Shown here piece after piece: positions 49,584-55,501 of a DNA stretch of 64,000 nt. This DNA is from Candidatus Woesearchaeota archaeon (lineage in GTDB: Archaea; Nanobdellota; Nanobdellia; Pacearchaeales; GW2011-AR1), in contig CAYHPN010000001.1 of NCBI GenBank assembly GCA_964358765.1, positions 91,182 through 155,181 on the forward strand. The letters are read 5' to 3'. How positions within the stretch are numbered: the stretch's first letter is position 1; each line of letters opens with the position of its first letter. Below the pieces are notes generated by a model that was given only the letters and a program-made list of their open reading frames with translations, did no database searches and was not told the DNA's origin. Position numbers and translations under genes: made by a program.

Positions 49584-50356
49584 TTTTTACTCCCTATGTG
49601 ATTTAATTCTGAAATTGCTTTTTCAGTAAACAAAGTCAATCTTCCTAATGGGTAAAGATCTGCGATTTCTAGATTTCTAATATTTCTAATTTCAAACCCG
49701 CTGAATGTTGCTTTTTCATCTTTGCCTGTTAAAATTAGAATTCCTGCATTTGATTTATATTTTCTTCCTCTCTTTTTCCCTTTTCCTGCTCGCACAACTT
49801 TATTTTTTAATGCTAACTCAATATTCTTTCCAAGAATTTTTTTTAATGTAGAAACGAGAGATTTTGTTTTTTGAGGTAATGAATCAATGATGAAAGGAGC
49901 GTGATCGAGAGTATGTAATGTTTCGTATCTTTTTTGTATAAGAGAAATAGAAGATGTAGCAGCAATACCAGAATTAATTGCCAAGGCAATTTCTTTTTTA
50001 TTTGTTTTTTTATCGGCGTAAATTCCAGTTGGAGGGAATGCTCTTCTTCCGCCTCTGGCAGAAGGCATGTTGGAAGCGACCCAATAGAAATTTGTTCCAC
50101 GTCTAGACATTGTTTTTCTTGGAACTCTTGAAATACCTTTTCCATAATGGCCTTTCCAGTCATGTCTTTTGTGGCTAATTTGATTATATCCTTGCTGCCT
50201 TATACCTGCACCGATTTTTGGAGAGTAGGGTTGAATTTTTTTAGATACTTCAAAGTGCTTCATTACAATGTCTTCTCTTATTGGAGAAGAAAATACTGAT
50301 GGTAAGTCTATTTGACCTTTCTTCTCGCCTGCTGAACTATATAATGTTGTTTTCAT
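49580..50356 (-). CDS. rpl4: ribosomal protein uL4
   Basis: ...QGYNQISHKRHDWKGHYGKGISRVPR... and position between uL3 and uL23. Confidence 0.85.
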   Translation of the reverse strand: MKTTLYSSAGEKKGQIDLPSVFSSPIREDIVMKHFEVSKKIQPYSPKIGAGIRQQGYNQISHKRHDWKGHYGKGISRVPRKTMSRRGTNFYWVASNMPSARGGRRAFPPTGIYADKKTNKKEIALAINSGIAATSSISLIQKRYETLHTLDHAPFIIDSLPQKTKSLVSTLKKILGKNIELALKNKVVRAGKGKKRGRKYKSNAGILILTGKDEKATFSGFEIRNIRNLEIADLYPLGRLTLFTEKAISELNHIGSKK

Positions 50357-50679
50357 AGTCCGAAACTCCTTAGATATGCGTGAGTTGTAATTTTTTTATC
50401 TTCATTATGAATAGTATCCGACATATAATATCCAGATATTAATTTCAACGCCCCGTTAGAAATCTTTAATTTATCACTCTGTGTTAAAAATACTTCTCTA
50501 GGCTGTCCACTTTCATATCTGCTTAATAATGTAAATTCATCATTATCGGATCTGTACATACATCCATCAGAAGTTGCAATGAACTCTCCAGGCTTTAAAT
50601 TATCTAAGTCATCTAAAGATCTTAAAATTACTACTTCCATTTTTCTCTCCATTGTTGTTTCTGATTCTCCTATTCCCAT
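50353..50679 (-). CDS. unassigned ~95-108-aa protein inserted between uL3 and uL4
   Basis: First ATG is 1 nt after the uL3 stop. Internal ATG 50640 is preceded by GGAGAG. Its stop overlaps the uL4 ATG (ATGA), and the uL4 GGAG lies inside its 3' end. Confidence 0.5.
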   Translation of the reverse strand: MGIGESETTMERKMEVVILRSLDDLDNLKPGEFIATSDGCMYRSDNDEFTLLSRYESGQPREVFLTQSDKLKISNGALKLISGYYMSDTIHNEDKKITTHAYLRSFGL

Positions 50680-51619: not shown

Positions 51620-51728
51620 ACTTTAACATTGTTTGGCTCCAACTCCGTTGCCTATTTTAATTCTAAAAAACCTTTGAAGTTTTTTGGATTCTACTTTACT
51701 TTGAGAAAATTGGGGTTTTTAAATCTGG

Positions 51729-51736
51729 CGGTAGGA
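51729..51736. repeat. target-site duplication, left copy (CGGTAGGA)
   Basis: The 8 nt immediately outside the left terminal inverted repeat are identical to 55040-55047. Confidence 0.7.
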
Positions 51737-51762
51737 TGAGCTGTAAAGTAAACGTCACCTAA
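51737..51762. repeat. left terminal inverted repeat
   Basis: TGAGCTGTAAAGTAAACGTCACCTAA. The reverse complement of 55014-55039 is TGAGCTGTAAAGTTAACGACACCTAA. Confidence 0.75.
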
Positions 51763-51794
51763 GAATATTTAAATGCCTTGATATCTTAGTTTAG

Positions 51795-52163
51795 ATGGAT
51801 GATAAGAAAGTAGAACGTGTTTTTAAAAGGAAGTTTACTACAAAAAATGATGGAGAAAACGTAACATTAAGAGAGAATTTGCCATCTAAGGAAACAGATA
51901 TGGATGCTGAAGATGTAAAAAATAGAGACGACTTCATACTATTTCTAAAGAAACTAAATGCTGATTTTAATGATTGGTTGCAAAACGAAAAATCTGACAA
52001 TCCCATTATGTGGGATAGTAGTAGATGGGCACAGAAATTTACTGGAGATTTTTTAGAAGCAATGTCTGCTTGGATAGAAGGACATGACTATGGAAAAGGG
52101 AAAAAAGCTCTTAGCTGGAGAGAAATTGCTGAACTCTTTGACGGCGCAAGAGTTTATGAATAG
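51795..52163 (+). CDS. hypothetical acidic protein (transposon passenger)
   Basis: 122-aa ORF. TATA TATTTAAAT ends about 21 nt upstream. Convergent 10-nt overlap with the transposase 3' end. Confidence 0.5.
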   Translation: MDDKKVERVFKRKFTTKNDGENVTLRENLPSKETDMDAEDVKNRDDFILFLKKLNADFNDWLQNEKSDNPIMWDSSRWAQKFTGDFLEAMSAWIEGHDYGKGKKALSWREIAELFDGARVYE

Positions 52164-53017
52164 CCTGAAGAAAGCCTAATCAACCCTAACCATCTATTAT
52201 CGCCTAAGTTTAACTCTTGTCCTGCTCTATTACAAGGCACTTCGTCTATTGTTGTGTGGGCTTCTATGAAGTTATGTTGTATAGTTATAGCCATCATCAT
52301 TATTGGTGCAGACCAAAGAGCTTTCAAACCTCTAAAGTCATCTACTCTATCTTTTATCTTCATGAAAACAGTTTCTATCCGATAATTATGAACTTTTGTT
52401 TTACTATAATTTTGTATCTTATGTTCAACTGTTAAACCTTTTATTTTGTTAGAATAGAATAGCTTCTGAAATGCTCTAGGATAAAATACTCCTGCATCAG
52501 TTTGGATATATTTTGGCTTCCCTTTACTTATTGCCTTCTTTAGAAACTGCATTGCTTGATTAGGATTACCAGACAATGAATAATGAATGCCAGTGATTAA
52601 ACGAGTATCCCAATCAAGACAACACCAAAACCTATCGCCTCTACCTTCACAGTCTATTAGAGTTTCATCTGCATAAAAGCTATTTCCTAAATTGTAGCCT
52701 AACTTTTCAACAAATTTCTGAACTTTCAAAGAATATCTTCTTACCCAATCTAAAATAGTCATGTGACTAACCTTAGTGCCTAAATGCCTACTTAACTGGC
52801 TTTTCATTTTTCTACTTGAAAGATTAGAGATATACATATCAACAGACATAGTGATTATTTTCTCGTTGTTTCTCATTCTGTAAAATCCTAAGTCTTGCGT
52901 GAAGTATCTCTTGCAGTTTTTACAATAATGTTTTTGGATTTTACCCCTATTTTCTGTCTTTCTATATCCTTTCTTGTAGCTATTTATTCCCTTACAAAAT
53001 TTACATTTTATTTCCAT
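52154..53017 (-). CDS. IS6-family DDE transposase with an N-terminal zinc finger
   Basis: CKFCKG...CKNCKRYF zinc finger. DDE region YADETLIDCEG...WCCLDWDTRLITG...IQTDAGVFYPRAF...NYRIETVFMKIKDR...HNFIEAH follows the IS6 D-D-E pattern as I recall it. Confidence 0.8.
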   Translation of the reverse strand: MEIKCKFCKGINSYKKGYRKTENRGKIQKHYCKNCKRYFTQDLGFYRMRNNEKIITMSVDMYISNLSSRKMKSQLSRHLGTKVSHMTILDWVRRYSLKVQKFVEKLGYNLGNSFYADETLIDCEGRGDRFWCCLDWDTRLITGIHYSLSGNPNQAMQFLKKAISKGKPKYIQTDAGVFYPRAFQKLFYSNKIKGLTVEHKIQNYSKTKVHNYRIETVFMKIKDRVDDFRGLKALWSAPIMMMAITIQHNFIEAHTTIDEVPCNRAGQELNLGDNRWLGLIRLSSGYS

Positions 53018-53024
53018 GCTATAA

Positions 53025-53062
53025 TTCGGTTACCGAAGTATTTAAGCATTTCGGTGTCCGAA
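53025..53062 (-). promoter_or_regulatory. promoter-operator cassette copy A (transposase)
   Basis: TTCGGTTACCGAA - GTATTTAAGCAT - TTCGGTGTCCGAA: two TTCGG-N3-CCGAA palindromes flank a minus-strand TATA (CTTAAATA). The TATA ends 22 nt before the transposase ATG. Confidence 0.6.
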
Positions 53063-53081
53063 CATATAACTTACTAACTTA

Positions 53082-53156
53082 TACAATAATAGTAGGTTTT
53101 TTTAGAAAGATTTAAATAGTTTAAACCTACTATTATTGTAACTAATAGTAGGTTTT
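53082..53156 (+). promoter_or_regulatory. Fic gene promoter with an 18-bp perfect inverted repeat bracketing the TATA box, plus a third half-site
   Basis: TACAATAATAGTAGGTTT (53082-53099) and its exact complement AAACCTACTATTATTGTA (53123-53140) bracket TTTAAATA (53111-53118). TAATAGTAGGTTTT repeats directly at 53143-53156. Confidence 0.55.
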
Positions 53157-53162
53157 AGTAAC

Positions 53163-54521
53163 ATGAGAAGACCGAAATCACCCCCACAACAAAAAGAATT
53201 GCGAGAAATAGTCGGAGATAAAAAAAATCAATCGTTATTCGATTATATGGGTAATAAAGAGATTAACGCATTTATTAAAGAGATGAATAATAGATATTTG
53301 CATTGGGATGAATTTGTTTATAGAACCCCTCCAAATAATGCAGATAGGGAAATCGTATGGACTTTGATGAAGTTTAATAGAAATTCCGCTGCTAAAAAAA
53401 TTAAAATAAGTAATGAAGGAGAGTTTAGTTTCAAATTTAATTTGTTAGACAATATACAACAAAAGTTACATGAATTTGACATGAATTTAGGAGGAACTTT
53501 AGGGTCGGCACAGTTTATTCCACAAGAAGAAAAAAATAGATATCTGATAAATTCTATTATGGAAGAAGCGATTGCCTCTAGTCAATTAGAAGGGGCTTCT
53601 ACAACAAGGAAAGTAGCAAAAGAGATGTTAAGAACTGCGAGAAAACCAAAAAACAAATCTGAAAAAATGATTATGAATAATTATCTAACTGCTAAGATGA
53701 TAAAAGATTCGAATGTTAAAAAACTTACTCCTGAATTTATACTTGAAATACACAAAAGTATAACTAAAGATACTTTGGATGATAAGAGTTACGAAGGAAA
53801 GTTTAGAGACACCGACGATATTGTTGTAGTGGACGAATCTACTGGTGAAATTTCTTATCATCCGCCAAAGCATGAATTAATTAGCAAAGTAATTGAAGAA
53901 TTTTGTGACTTCGCTAATAAACCTAGCACTTATTTTATGCACCCAATAGTGAAAGCGTCTATTCTCCATTTTTTAATTGGCTATATTCACCCATTTGTCG
54001 ATGGAAATGGTAGAACGGCTAGGTCTCTTTTTTACTGGTATTTAACCAAAGAAGGATACTGGATAATTGAGTTTATGTCTATTTCTAGGATAATAATAAA
54101 ATCTCCATCTAAATATTCAAGAGCTTATCTCTATACAGAAACTGACGAAAACGATTTAACATATTTTCTCAACTATCAAATTAGAACAATAGATATAGCT
54201 TTACGAGAATTGAAAAATTACATCTCTAGAAAAATGAAGGAGAAAGAAACATTATTTAAAATTATAGATAAGATAGAGGGTCTTAACATTCGTCAAGCAA
54301 ATATGATTAAAATGCTTTATCAAGATGAAAGAAAAAGACTAACTATGAGGGAACTACAAGAAACATTTAACATAGTATATGAAACAGCCAGGAAAGACTT
54401 GTTAGATTTAGAGAATAGAGGTTTTATCGAAAGAAGATTAATTGGAAAACAAAAGCTAATCTTCATTCGTTCAAAGAAGTTTCATGACTTGATAAGTAAA
54501 CATCTAGAAAATATCGAGTAG
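53163..54521 (+). CDS. Fic/Fido-domain protein with a C-terminal winged-helix domain
   Basis: Canonical Fic motif HPFVDGNGRTARSL, with a wHTH-like tail (TMRELQETFNIVYETARKDLLDLENRGFIER). Confidence 0.85.
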   Translation: MRRPKSPPQQKELREIVGDKKNQSLFDYMGNKEINAFIKEMNNRYLHWDEFVYRTPPNNADREIVWTLMKFNRNSAAKKIKISNEGEFSFKFNLLDNIQQKLHEFDMNLGGTLGSAQFIPQEEKNRYLINSIMEEAIASSQLEGASTTRKVAKEMLRTARKPKNKSEKMIMNNYLTAKMIKDSNVKKLTPEFILEIHKSITKDTLDDKSYEGKFRDTDDIVVVDESTGEISYHPPKHELISKVIEEFCDFANKPSTYFMHPIVKASILHFLIGYIHPFVDGNGRTARSLFYWYLTKEGYWIIEFMSISRIIIKSPSKYSRAYLYTETDENDLTYFLNYQIRTIDIALRELKNYISRKMKEKETLFKIIDKIEGLNIRQANMIKMLYQDERKRLTMRELQETFNIVYETARKDLLDLENRGFIERRLIGKQKLIFIRSKKFHDLISKHLENIE

Positions 54522-54683
54522 TTATTTATCTTTTTCAATAATTATTTTGTTGTTTTCGAATTTTACATTTAACTCTTTACCCTCAAGTCTACTCTCTTCG
54601 ACAACTCTTTTAGGTAAATTAATCTTATATTTATAATAAATTGTTTCGCCAACTTTTTTATCCACCGCTTTCATAATCTTCAT
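54522..54683 (-). CDS. AbrB/SpoVT-like micro-protein (53 aa), not in ORF track
   Basis: MKIMKAVDKKVGETIYYKYKINLPKRVVEESRLEGKELNVKFENNKIIIEKDK has the ..i.LPK.vve...l..g.el.v..e...iii.k swapped-hairpin pattern. Driven by cassette copy B with identical 22-nt TATA-ATG spacing. Confidence 0.5.
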   Translation of the reverse strand: MKIMKAVDKKVGETIYYKYKINLPKRVVEESRLEGKELNVKFENNKIIIEKDK

Positions 54684-54690
54684 AAAAGGT

Positions 54691-54728
54691 TTAGGTTACC
54701 GAACTATTTAAGTTTATCGGTGTCCGAA
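54691..54728 (-). promoter_or_regulatory. promoter-operator cassette copy B (AbrB-like ORF)
   Basis: 33/38 identical to 53025-53062 in the same orientation (TTAGGTTACCGAA - CTATTTAAGTTT - ATCGGTGTCCGAA). Confidence 0.6.
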
Positions 54729-54965
54729 TCAATTCTTATACTCTTTTCGTGCTTTTAATCTTGCTTTTTCCTTAATAAACTCTTCTTTGTATAAGTTACC
54801 CTCATATTCTTTTAGTCCGCTTTTATTTAATTTTATCAACTTTCCCTTTCTATCTAATTCACTCTTGCAATAACCACAAGTCCAACCGCCCCATAAAATT
54901 TGTTTCATATTACTAGCAATTCTAAAGAAAGGTAACGGTTGTTTACAAACAGGGCAATTTACCAT
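54729..54965 (-). CDS. zinc-ribbon protein (transposon passenger)
   Basis: CPVCKQ...CGYCKS pair of Cys knuckles. TATA AATTTAAATA lies about 21 nt upstream. Confidence 0.5.
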   Translation of the reverse strand: MVNCPVCKQPLPFFRIASNMKQILWGGWTCGYCKSELDRKGKLIKLNKSGLKEYEGNLYKEEFIKEKARLKARKEYKN

Positions 54966-55013
54966 CTCAACTTTAAGAAAAGCCCATATTTAAATTTCAC
55001 TCAAAGAGCTTAA

Positions 55014-55039
55014 TTAGGTGTCGTTAACTTTACAGCTCA
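55014..55039. repeat. right terminal inverted repeat
   Basis: TTAGGTGTCGTTAACTTTACAGCTCA, the inverted partner of 51737-51762 (24/26). Confidence 0.75.
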
Positions 55040-55047
55040 CGGTAGGA
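55040..55047. repeat. target-site duplication, right copy (CGGTAGGA)
   Basis: Immediately outside the right terminal inverted repeat and identical to 51729-51736. Confidence 0.7.
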
Positions 55048-55081
55048 GTAGATTTAAATAATTGACTAGACTACGGAAAAT

Positions 55082-55501
55082 ATGGTTGAAGGTAATAAGG
55101 GCTATACTATAAAACGTTTCGAAAAAAGAAAAGATATTGCAGTTATACAATTAAGAGATCCTGACGAATTCTTAAGAGAGTCATACATGTGCAGTTTACT
55201 TTATCCTATGATCGCTGAACTAAAAAATGAAATTGAAAAACAAAAAGGAGTAAACTATTACTGCTTGGATTTGTCAAATGCCTCCAGACCTTTTGGTGGA
55301 TGCTCCCCCACTACATTAGTTTCATCTTTGTCAAGGGTGAAGAAAGAGAGACCGTATAAGTTAAGTGTTGTGTTCAAATATGAAGATAATAGAGAAAGAT
55401 TAAGAAAAGAAAGAATAGATAGGATGGCAAGAATACATAATAGTTTGGATTCTTTTAGAAAGGTTCATCGTATCAAAGCGCCATATAGATATGAAAAATA
55501 G
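55082..55501 (+). CDS. hypothetical protein
   Basis: 139-aa ORF. TATA TTTAAATA (55053-55060) ends 22 nt upstream of the ATG. Confidence 0.5.
   Translation: MVEGNKGYTIKRFEKRKDIAVIQLRDPDEFLRESYMCSLLYPMIAELKNEIEKQKGVNYYCLDLSNASRPFGGCSPTTLVSSLSRVKKERPYKLSVVFKYEDNRERLRKERIDRMARIHNSLDSFRKVHRIKAPYRYEK

Follow-up and report, generated by a model that had tools for sequence, protein, structure and literature searches.

Insertion sequences (IS) listed as the IS6 family among archaea in ISfinder (clades Ai to Aiv, e.g., ISPfu1 and haloarchaeal, Sulfolobales, and Thermococcales members) have a single open reading frame (ORF) for a DDE transposase with the signature E--F---K-R, terminal inverted repeats (TIRs) longer than the 14 bp of bacterial members and often not starting with GG, and 8-bp target-site duplications (TSDs) (PMC6807381, PMC7986276). 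Harmer and Hall gave the TIR length of such archaeal elements, their clades a to d, as at least 18 bp and argued that they are not true members of the IS6/IS26 group, for which the criteria listed in 2019 were a 14-bp TIR starting with GG, G at position 7, the motif E-DH---K, and at least about 40% identity (PMC6807381). The typical IS6 size is about 0.7 to 0.9 kb, up to 1.7 kb in clades with long transposases, and no passengers are carried; the only passenger-bearing IS6 member cited is ISDsp3, a single-copy bacterial element of the tIS type with one hypothetical passenger and an IS-type transposase within one inverted-repeat pair (PMC7986276). According to a 2019 survey, passenger-carrying DNA transposons had not been detected in archaea (PMC6563490), and in the accessible part of a 2026 archaeal IS survey "passenger" does not occur and "cargo" occurs twice, neither time tied to IS6. 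The general kind, an archaeal cargo transposon, is known, because Tn7-like cargo transposons are reported in archaea in the accessible part of a preprint (bioRxiv 10.1101/2025.07.27.667033). The element described here occupies positions 51737 to 55039 of a 64-kb stretch (64,000 nucleotides, hereafter the window) of contig CAYHPN010000001.1 from a Candidatus Woesearchaeota archaeon. It is very likely an intact and probably autonomous copy of a unit-transposon family that is widespread in DPANN archaea.

The element measures 3303 bp and contains five ORFs, all intact (Table 1). An earlier note on this DNA had described 26-bp inverted repeats matching at 24 of 26 positions with identical 8-mers abutting them; the repeats were borne out by direct reading and by a repeat finder, and CGGTAGGA was found directly outside both arms. 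The degenerate 26-mer occurred exactly twice in the window, with 0 occurrences expected (100 shuffles), and both ends were within 1 to 2 mismatches of the family end consensus. Neither second copies nor other family members were present in the 64 kb, and a search of the window for inner ends that would bracket a shorter IS, allowing up to 6 mismatches in 23 positions, returned no further TIR-like sequence. GC content revealed no compositional anomaly (31.2% in the element and 31.4% in the window). The insertion lies in a 151-bp divergent intergenic region, with the ribosomal operon rpl3-rpl4-rpl23-rpl2... on one side and an orphan 139-aa gene on the other.

Table 1. Features of the element and of its insertion site (positions in the window)
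Feature	Position	Strand	Remark
Target site, left half (TTTAAATCTGG), outside the element	51718-51728		With 55048-55058, fits the symmetric target consensus
TSD, left copy (CGGTAGGA)	51729-51736		Identical to 55040-55047
TIR, transposase-distal end (IRR), TGAGCTGTAAAGTAAACGTCACCTAA	51737-51762	+	24/26 match to the other end
Cargo: DUF7660 protein, 122 aa	51795-52163	+	Pfam PF24693
Transposase, 287 aa	52154-53017	-	Zinc finger and DDE domain; PF13610
Operator-promoter copy P2, directly upstream of the transposase	53025-53062	-	38-nt direct repeat of 54691-54728
Fic upstream region, three AATAGTAGGTT(TT) copies	53065-53157		Repeat finder
Cargo: SoFic-type Fic AMP-transferase, 452 aa	53163-54521	+	Pfam, PADLOC, and PDB matches
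Core gene: AbrB/MazE/SpoVT-like protein, 53 aa	54522-54683	-	Homologues in 33/38 elements
Operator-promoter copy P1, directly upstream of the AbrB-like gene	54691-54728	-	Direct repeat of 53025-53062
Cargo: zinc-ribbon-like protein, 78 aa	54729-54965	-	Cysteine pattern CPVC...CGYC alone
TIR, transposase-proximal end (IRL)	55014-55039	-	Reverse complement TGAGCTGTAAAGTTAACGACACCTAA
TSD, right copy (CGGTAGGA)	55040-55047		Identical to the left copy
Target site, right half (GTAGATTTAAA), outside the element	55048-55058		Inverted repeat pair extends to 45 nt

From 80 metagenome loci (numbered with the prefix L) and genome matches, 38 distinct complete elements were reconstructed, each defined by a TIR pair and a perfect 8-bp duplication. 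Every element had its own duplication sequence and its own flanks, which argues against copies of a single locus and marks the 38 insertions as independent; two different elements, L066 and L092, were located on one 829-kb contig. The elements ranged from 1721 to 6307 bp and all carried cargo, the smallest still bearing one cargo gene. The earlier note regarded a cargo-bearing IS6 derivative as unusual, but among the reconstructed members of this family, at least 38 of 1.7 to 6.3 kb, cargo is the norm. The family end consensus was TGAGCTGTAAAGTWARCGTCACCTA, 25 to 26 bp long with TG...CA termini. The 26-mer search pattern, with W at two positions, had exact matches in 30 species-representative genomes, mostly metagenome-assembled genomes (MAGs) of Woesearchaeota, Aenigmatarchaeota, and Nanoarchaeia, and nearly all of these matches were explained by the left arm's own sequence. 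Relatives of the transposase numbered 697 (E <= 0.001), the best 120 of them being 69 to 91% identical, and some were named "IS1/IS6 family transposase" from Candidatus Pacearchaeota archaeon. On clustering at 50%, the transposase clade was reduced to 1 to 2 representatives, with the next relatives at 39 to 42% identity and further ones at about 30 to 36%.

Two transposase-less derivatives with family ends and a perfect 8-bp TSD were found in MAGs labeled Methanosarcinales, a 423-bp element resembling a miniature inverted-repeat transposable element (L024:7149-7571) and a 1491-bp element with a gene for a 346-aa methyltransferase-like protein (L023:4345-5835). Other members outside DPANN bins came from a bacterial MAG labeled Sneathiellales (L001) and from Hadarchaeota (L022). 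Mis-binning is likely for L001, because its 3.8-kb contig consists almost entirely of the element, and real cross-phylum transfer is possible for L022, L023, and L024. The best pairs of elements at different sites were only 87 to 90% identical over their shared parts when near-identical copies were sought, and none of the loci examined contained two copies in direct repeat. One sub-lineage (L062, L063, L089, L090, L094, L098, L107, and L108) had the AbrB-like gene inverted and divergent from the transposase at element positions 41 to 202, and its inner TIR differed (..GTCTGGAA / ..GTCAGGT).

Target-site preference was analyzed by aligning the 38 reconstructed empty sites and scoring each with a symmetrized, leave-one-out position weight matrix relative to random positions in the flanking DNA. 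The symmetric consensus was T.TAAA..T..|C......G|..A..TTTA.A, in which the central eight positions are the duplicated part. Twenty-nine of the 38 sites scored in the top 1% of random positions and 35 in the top 5%, and the window site had the highest score of all. On either side of the duplication, its flanks are palindromic over 9 bp (TTTAAATCT gg CGGTAGGA gt AGATTTAAA), and the predicted empty site reads ...GGGTTTTTAAATCTGGCGGTAGGAGTAGATTTAAATAATTG.... The half-sites resemble archaeal TATA boxes and are spaced about 22 bp apart, and most of the 38 sites were outside long open frames; such a preference would be expected if promoters or intergenic DNA were the usual insertion targets. IS26 is not known to have a comparable target consensus.

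Several observations weigh against the reading of the window element as an autonomous, mobile family member. Exact-protein look-ups of both flanking genes, made in search of an empty site, returned only contigs that were identical to the window or that broke at the element ends, and all Hainich contigs (same aquifer) covering the site either contained the insertion or were broken at its ends. Locus L114, the first 14 nt of which differ inside the TIR, was considered as an empty site and rejected, the difference being read as a repeat-induced contig end. No second identical copy was found either. In the genome tiles L003, L008, L016, L017, and L021, exact TIRs stood alone in the 3 to 7 kb available, with neither a partner end nor a matching TSD or transposase; very long elements, non-autonomous elements, and solo ends are all possible explanations. 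Because neither an empty site nor a second identical copy was found, recent activity of the window copy is not established, and the claim of a recent insertion, which had been drawn from the perfect duplication, is not supported.

The absence of an empty allele, the uniform Hainich contigs, the single copy in the 64 kb, and the existence of decayed relatives (L123 and L129) would also fit a window copy that is an immobile fossil fixed in the population, its cargo effectively chromosomal. Such a fossil is unlikely, though the most credible of the alternatives weighed here, given that none of the five ORFs is disrupted, the transposase retains its catalytic D117, D174, and E215 together with the zinc-finger cysteines, the ends match each other at 24 of 26 positions and lie within 1 to 2 mismatches of the consensus, and the TSD is perfect.

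The conserved core of the family contrasts with a variable cargo. The transposase was present in 38 of 38 elements and a homologue of the 53-aa AbrB-like protein in 33, whatever the cargo, near the transposase-proximal end and in either orientation. Four ORFs besides the transposase, including the 452-aa Fic protein, had been counted as passengers; three of these are cargo, and the AbrB-like ORF is a core gene because of its presence in 33 of 38 elements. Cargo was found in three slots, between IRL and AbrB, between AbrB and the transposase, and between the transposase and IRR, with unrelated genes in different members, and in the window all three are filled (zinc-ribbon protein, Fic, and DUF7660 protein, respectively). 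Among the 114 cargo ORFs of the family, 77 were singletons. The cargo that could be identified included restriction-modification and repair genes (a type IIG Eco57I/MmeI-like enzyme; type II systems, including NgoPII with a C5 methyltransferase and Vsr; and a type III Res/Mod pair accompanied by a Shedu SduA-like protein), other defense-related genes (a ThsB-type Toll/interleukin-1 receptor domain protein, a GajB-like UvrD helicase, and STAND ATPases), a complete pstS-pstC-pstA-pstB-phoU set, enzymes (a pyridoxal phosphate-dependent decarboxylase with NAD synthase and an ATP-grasp protein; LD-carboxypeptidase, cyclodipeptide synthase, peroxiredoxin, and glyoxalase), and an Lrp/AsnC regulator. 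The cargo is hypervariable and rich in defense genes. An IS200-type Y1 transposase was also seen as cargo (L064:7024-7440), i.e., nested mobile elements.

Two of the window cargo proteins belong to singleton clusters. The DUF7660 protein scored 36.1 bits against PF24693 (cutoff 27), and its gene is preceded by a TATA-like TATTTAAAT about 20 nt upstream; the 78-aa protein had no Pfam match and only a weak Trm112-like match, the zinc-ribbon call coming from its cysteines. In L112 (L112:1-1560, compared with window 52532-54683), from the same aquifer, the flank, IRL, the zinc-ribbon gene, and the 5' end of AbrB are shared at 98.8% identity, after which Fic is replaced by a pair of ORFs of 73 and 159 aa that lack Pfam matches, and the transposase is 83.5% identical. 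This may represent an exchange of cargo or core by recombination or, to the detriment of that reading, a chimeric assembly, the contig having 4x coverage.

The Fic protein matched Pfam Fic (5e-20) and has a C-terminal winged helix-turn-helix (wHTH) domain of the HTH_DeoR type (residues 377 to 424). Like the SoFic anti-phage protein, it contains the inhibitory motif (S/T)xxxE(G/N), here SSQLEG at residue 139, and the catalytic motif HxFx(D/E)GNGRxxR, here HPFVDGNGRTAR starting at residue 276; it matched the PADLOC SoFic model (3.2e-44, model positions 23 to 350 of 361) and aligned to FICD and SoFic structures among the PDB matches. The score against the NCBIfam SoFic model was 69 bits, well under the cutoff of 550. 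It differs from SoFic in being archaeal, in an N terminus longer by about 80 aa, in a defense activity that is predicted, and in its small neighboring ORF, which belongs to the transposon core and is not demonstrably an antitoxin of the AS1 type. Fic is probably a self-inhibited AMPylase of an abortive-infection/defense or addiction module, although the defense role is read from homology, which tells against a firm assignment.

Movement of Fic by this transposon family follows from an 83%-identical sister (L119 to L121), in which AbrB is directly followed by a family TIR and the insertion site has other flanks than in the window; the expectation that the element would mobilize a Fic effector gains support from it. 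In the closest transposase relative (L031, 91%), the same slot is taken by a different Fic-domain gene, 30% identical. In L123:4700-6600, a 67%-identical Fic and an AbrB-like gene occur together in the middle of the contig, with a GINS gene on one side and an MNT/HepT pair on the other. The two operator boxes persist there, along with inverted repeats that resemble diverged ends and the decayed N terminus of a transposase; judging from these remnants, L123 is a fossil element that left Fic in the chromosome. No transposon context was found around Fic homologues of at most 58% identity (L127 and L128). Ahead of the window Fic, two of the three repeat copies are direct and one is inverted, and a related repeated motif, AAATAGTAGATTTTA, is found upstream of Fic in L123. 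These repeats are a candidate operator for the C-terminal wHTH domain of Fic itself. Copies of AATAGTAG(G/A)TTTT recur just upstream of Fic in the same window region and at L123:4900-5000.

In 15 of the 38 elements, the transposase gene is immediately preceded by a 38-nt module, which consists of a TATA box (TTTAAATA or TTTATATA) between two 13-bp palindromes, TTCGG-N3-CCGAA. This module was duplicated, with one copy per gene, in the seven elements with cargo between AbrB and the transposase (window, L034, L035, L038, L044, L068, and L069). The window copies P1 and P2 are direct repeats with 87% identity, and the only four TTCGG-N3-CCGAA boxes in the 64 kb lie within them. This arrangement suggests a putative autoregulatory circuit: the TATA box would be occluded by a DNA-binding protein acting as a dimer, for which the AbrB-like protein is the most plausible candidate.

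Assignment of the 53-aa protein to the AbrB/MazE/SpoVT group draws on the family level, where PF04014 MazE_antitoxin was matched by 13 of 18 AbrB-like members (best E 7e-7). Counting against the assignment, the window protein alone had no Pfam match, its family profile matched MazE structures weakly (E = 0.018 to 0.026), and the single-sequence AlphaFold2 model, with beta-beta-alpha-beta-beta order, was of low confidence (predicted local distance difference test score 55.6).

The MazE_antitoxin matches allow another reading, in which this ORF would serve mainly as antitoxin to Fic, the two forming a toxin-antitoxin or addiction pair that stabilizes the transposon, and would not be a regulator of transposition. 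AbrB-like sequence lies immediately downstream of all five close Fic homologues with examined context (P0273 to P0277, 66 to 83% identity), being called as a 52- to 53-aa convergent ORF in four and, in L129, found as a partial tblastn match of residues 18 to 52. A 47-aa gene product (AS1) encoded downstream of EcSofic neutralizes EcSofic toxicity (PMC12249575), and toxin-antitoxin modules are known inside Tn3 transposition modules from the accessible part of a further source (PMC7157771). An antitoxin as the main role is nonetheless doubtful, somewhat more so than the fossil discussed above. The same ORF accompanies cargo unrelated to Fic in the 33 elements, often as the sole gene besides the transposase and one cargo gene, which argues against tempering of Fic as its primary role. 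Since equally tight convergent packing against AbrB occurs with a STAND ATPase and other cargo (L038, L069, and L044), the adjacency to Fic is a result of the architecture; Fic, moreover, has an inhibitory helix motif of its own. That the MazE-fold protein also tempers Fic is retained as a minority view because of the AS1 antitoxin reported in 2025 downstream of the E. coli Sofic (PMC12249575).

The transposase has an N-terminal CxxC...CxxC zinc finger followed by the DDE domain. Its best matches were all to IS6, in agreement with the earlier note: PF13610 DDE_Tnp_IS240 in Pfam (53.5 bits, cutoff 27, E 3.8e-14), transpos_IS6 (NF033587) as the top NCBIfam match, with the alignment covering model positions 1 to 200 of 202, and, in a tblastn search of plasmids with 208 matching records, IS6 family transposases in 10 of the 12 rows listed, the other two being without an annotated feature. 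Across 30 relatives down to 30% identity, C32, C35, D117, D174, and E215 were invariant and C5, C8, K222, and R224 near-invariant. Residues 215 to 224, ETVFMKIKDR, fit the archaeal signature E--F---K-R and not the bacterial E-DH---K.

Strict membership in IS6 did not stand. The NCBIfam score of 90.7 bits is under the curated cutoff of 125, which speaks against an unqualified IS6 assignment, and identity to annotated plasmid and bacterial IS6 transposases is 25 to 28%. The element ends start TGAGCTG..., with G at positions 2 and 7 and T, not GG, at the start. With bacterial IS26/IS6 sensu stricto the element thus shares catalytic-core homology at the Pfam and NCBIfam level, the 8-bp TSD, and both G residues, and differs in identity, sub-cutoff score, TG ends, and cargo inside a single pair of inverted ends; it falls outside the IS6/IS26 group of Harmer and Hall (2019) and within IS6 in the broad sense by DDE homology and 8-bp duplications, not by the curated score. 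With the archaeal group it agrees in E--F---K-R and in TIRs of 25 to 26 bp starting with TG. Size and content (3303 bp and three cargo ORFs, in a family of 1721 to 6307 bp) are far from the passenger-free IS6 norm, and passengers and transposase inside one IR pair with one TSD are those of a tIS or unit transposon. Because of the score below the curated cutoff, the TG ends, and the size and passengers far outside family norms, IS6-like (archaeal group), not a strict IS6 member, is the term that fits this sequence.

The ISMhu11 subgroup of IS1 in ISfinder includes long archaeal elements, some members reaching several kb. That the element belongs to IS1 or to such an archaeal ISMhu11-type subgroup, and that IS6-like is a misclassification, is improbable. 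The NCBI name "IS1/IS6 family transposase" of close homologues and the sub-cutoff IS6 score leave room for it, as does the match of the zinc-finger region to the NCBIfam IS1 model, which at 34.3 bits compares with 90.7 bits for an IS6 alignment spanning the whole model. The Pfam match to DDE_Tnp_IS240, the 10 of 12 listed plasmid rows annotated as IS6 (the other two without annotated feature), and the archaeal IS6 signature in the transposase itself all point to IS6-like.

A standard IS of about 1 kb among unrelated neighbors, with outer 26-bp repeats and 8-mers that are unrelated or coincidental, would suit the usual 0.7- to 0.9-kb, passenger-free format of IS6 with ISDsp3 as the sole exception (PMC7986276) and can be dismissed as refuted, since no TIR-like sequence brackets the transposase alone in the window, the only internal TIR-like copy among the 38 elements is a tandem duplicate about 30 bp inside the transposase-distal end of L047 (L047:7927-7957), chance predicts 0 occurrences of the outer 26-mer, which delimits all family members and is accompanied in each by a perfect 8-bp TSD, and even the 1721-bp element carries cargo.

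As an IS6-like unit transposon, the family has a core of 25- to 26-bp TG...CA ends, an archaeal zinc-finger DDE transposase, a small AbrB/MazE-like protein, and the dual-palindrome TATA promoter. The transposase would bind both ends, expose the 3'-CA ends, and join them by DDE chemistry to the two target strands at points offset by 8 bp, an offset that is evident from the duplications. Its preference for a symmetric A/T-rich, TATA-box-like target is borne out statistically, and the route may be an IS26-style replicative cointegrate or simple insertion. Conservation and fold suggest that the AbrB-like protein is most likely a repressor, acting on the promoters between palindromes that precede its own gene and the transposase gene, and Fic, by homology to SoFic, would act as a self-inhibited AMPylase with a probable role in defense/abortive infection or addiction. 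Cargo turnover probably proceeds via recombination between family members within the conserved core, and decay of the transposase would leave the cargo fixed in the host genome.

Beside the insertion, the 139-aa orphan gene (window 55082-55501, +) matched only itself in a collection of 5.8 billion proteins. In the ribosomal operon, a 108-aa ORF without a Pfam match (window 50353-50679, -) is wedged between rpl3 and rpl4, overlaps rpl4 by 4 nt, and is kept in all same-population contigs.

Compared by description only, the archaeal ISfinder IS6 elements of about 0.7 to 0.9 kb are passenger-free, whereas the window family measures 1.7 to 6.3 kb with cargo in 38 of 38 elements and has in addition the AbrB/MazE-like gene (33 of 38), the palindrome-flanked promoter (15 of 38), an N-terminal zinc finger on the transposase, and a marked symmetric target preference. 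In contrast to ISDsp3 with its single hypothetical passenger, it comprises hundreds of members with three slots and diverse, often multi-gene cargo. Tn7-like and Tn3-family elements are likewise unit transposons, with cargo dominated by defense systems according to the accessible part of one source (PMC8649781), and antitoxin-fold regulators can adjoin the Tn3-family transposase, as the accessible part of another describes (PMC7157771). The machinery is unrelated, however: the window family relies on one small DDE protein and lacks TnsBC/TniQ, a resolvase, and a res site, and its elements are far smaller and select their targets in another way. No prior description of the family was found in the searchable literature, a search that did not extend to ISfinder entries.

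The evidence tips modestly toward the window element being the first recognized copy of an undescribed, abundant DPANN family with four joint properties. These would be an IS6-like zinc-finger DDE transposase paired with an AbrB/MazE-fold co-factor and controlled by a dual-palindrome operator-promoter; selection of a symmetric, TATA-box-like target of 30 bp, which steers insertions into the promoter or intergenic DNA of very gene-dense genomes; cassette exchange at three fixed slots; and service as a main shuttle of defense genes (restriction-modification, Shedu, Thoeris-like Toll/interleukin-1 receptor protein, and SoFic) and small metabolic modules among DPANN, with cargo left behind on transposase decay.

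In database annotation, the members are now scattered as "transposase-like protein" and hypothetical genes. The compact system, with a 287-aa transposase, a 53-aa partner, and 26-bp ends, is tractable, its clear target consensus lends itself to the study of target selection by IS6-like enzymes, and the family may serve as a starting point for archaeal genetic tools. A family with cargo as the rule across many DPANN lineages would fill a gap in archaeal mobile elements and would offer a tangible means by which genes could move horizontally on the heavy scale inferred for these small-genome, host-dependent archaea.

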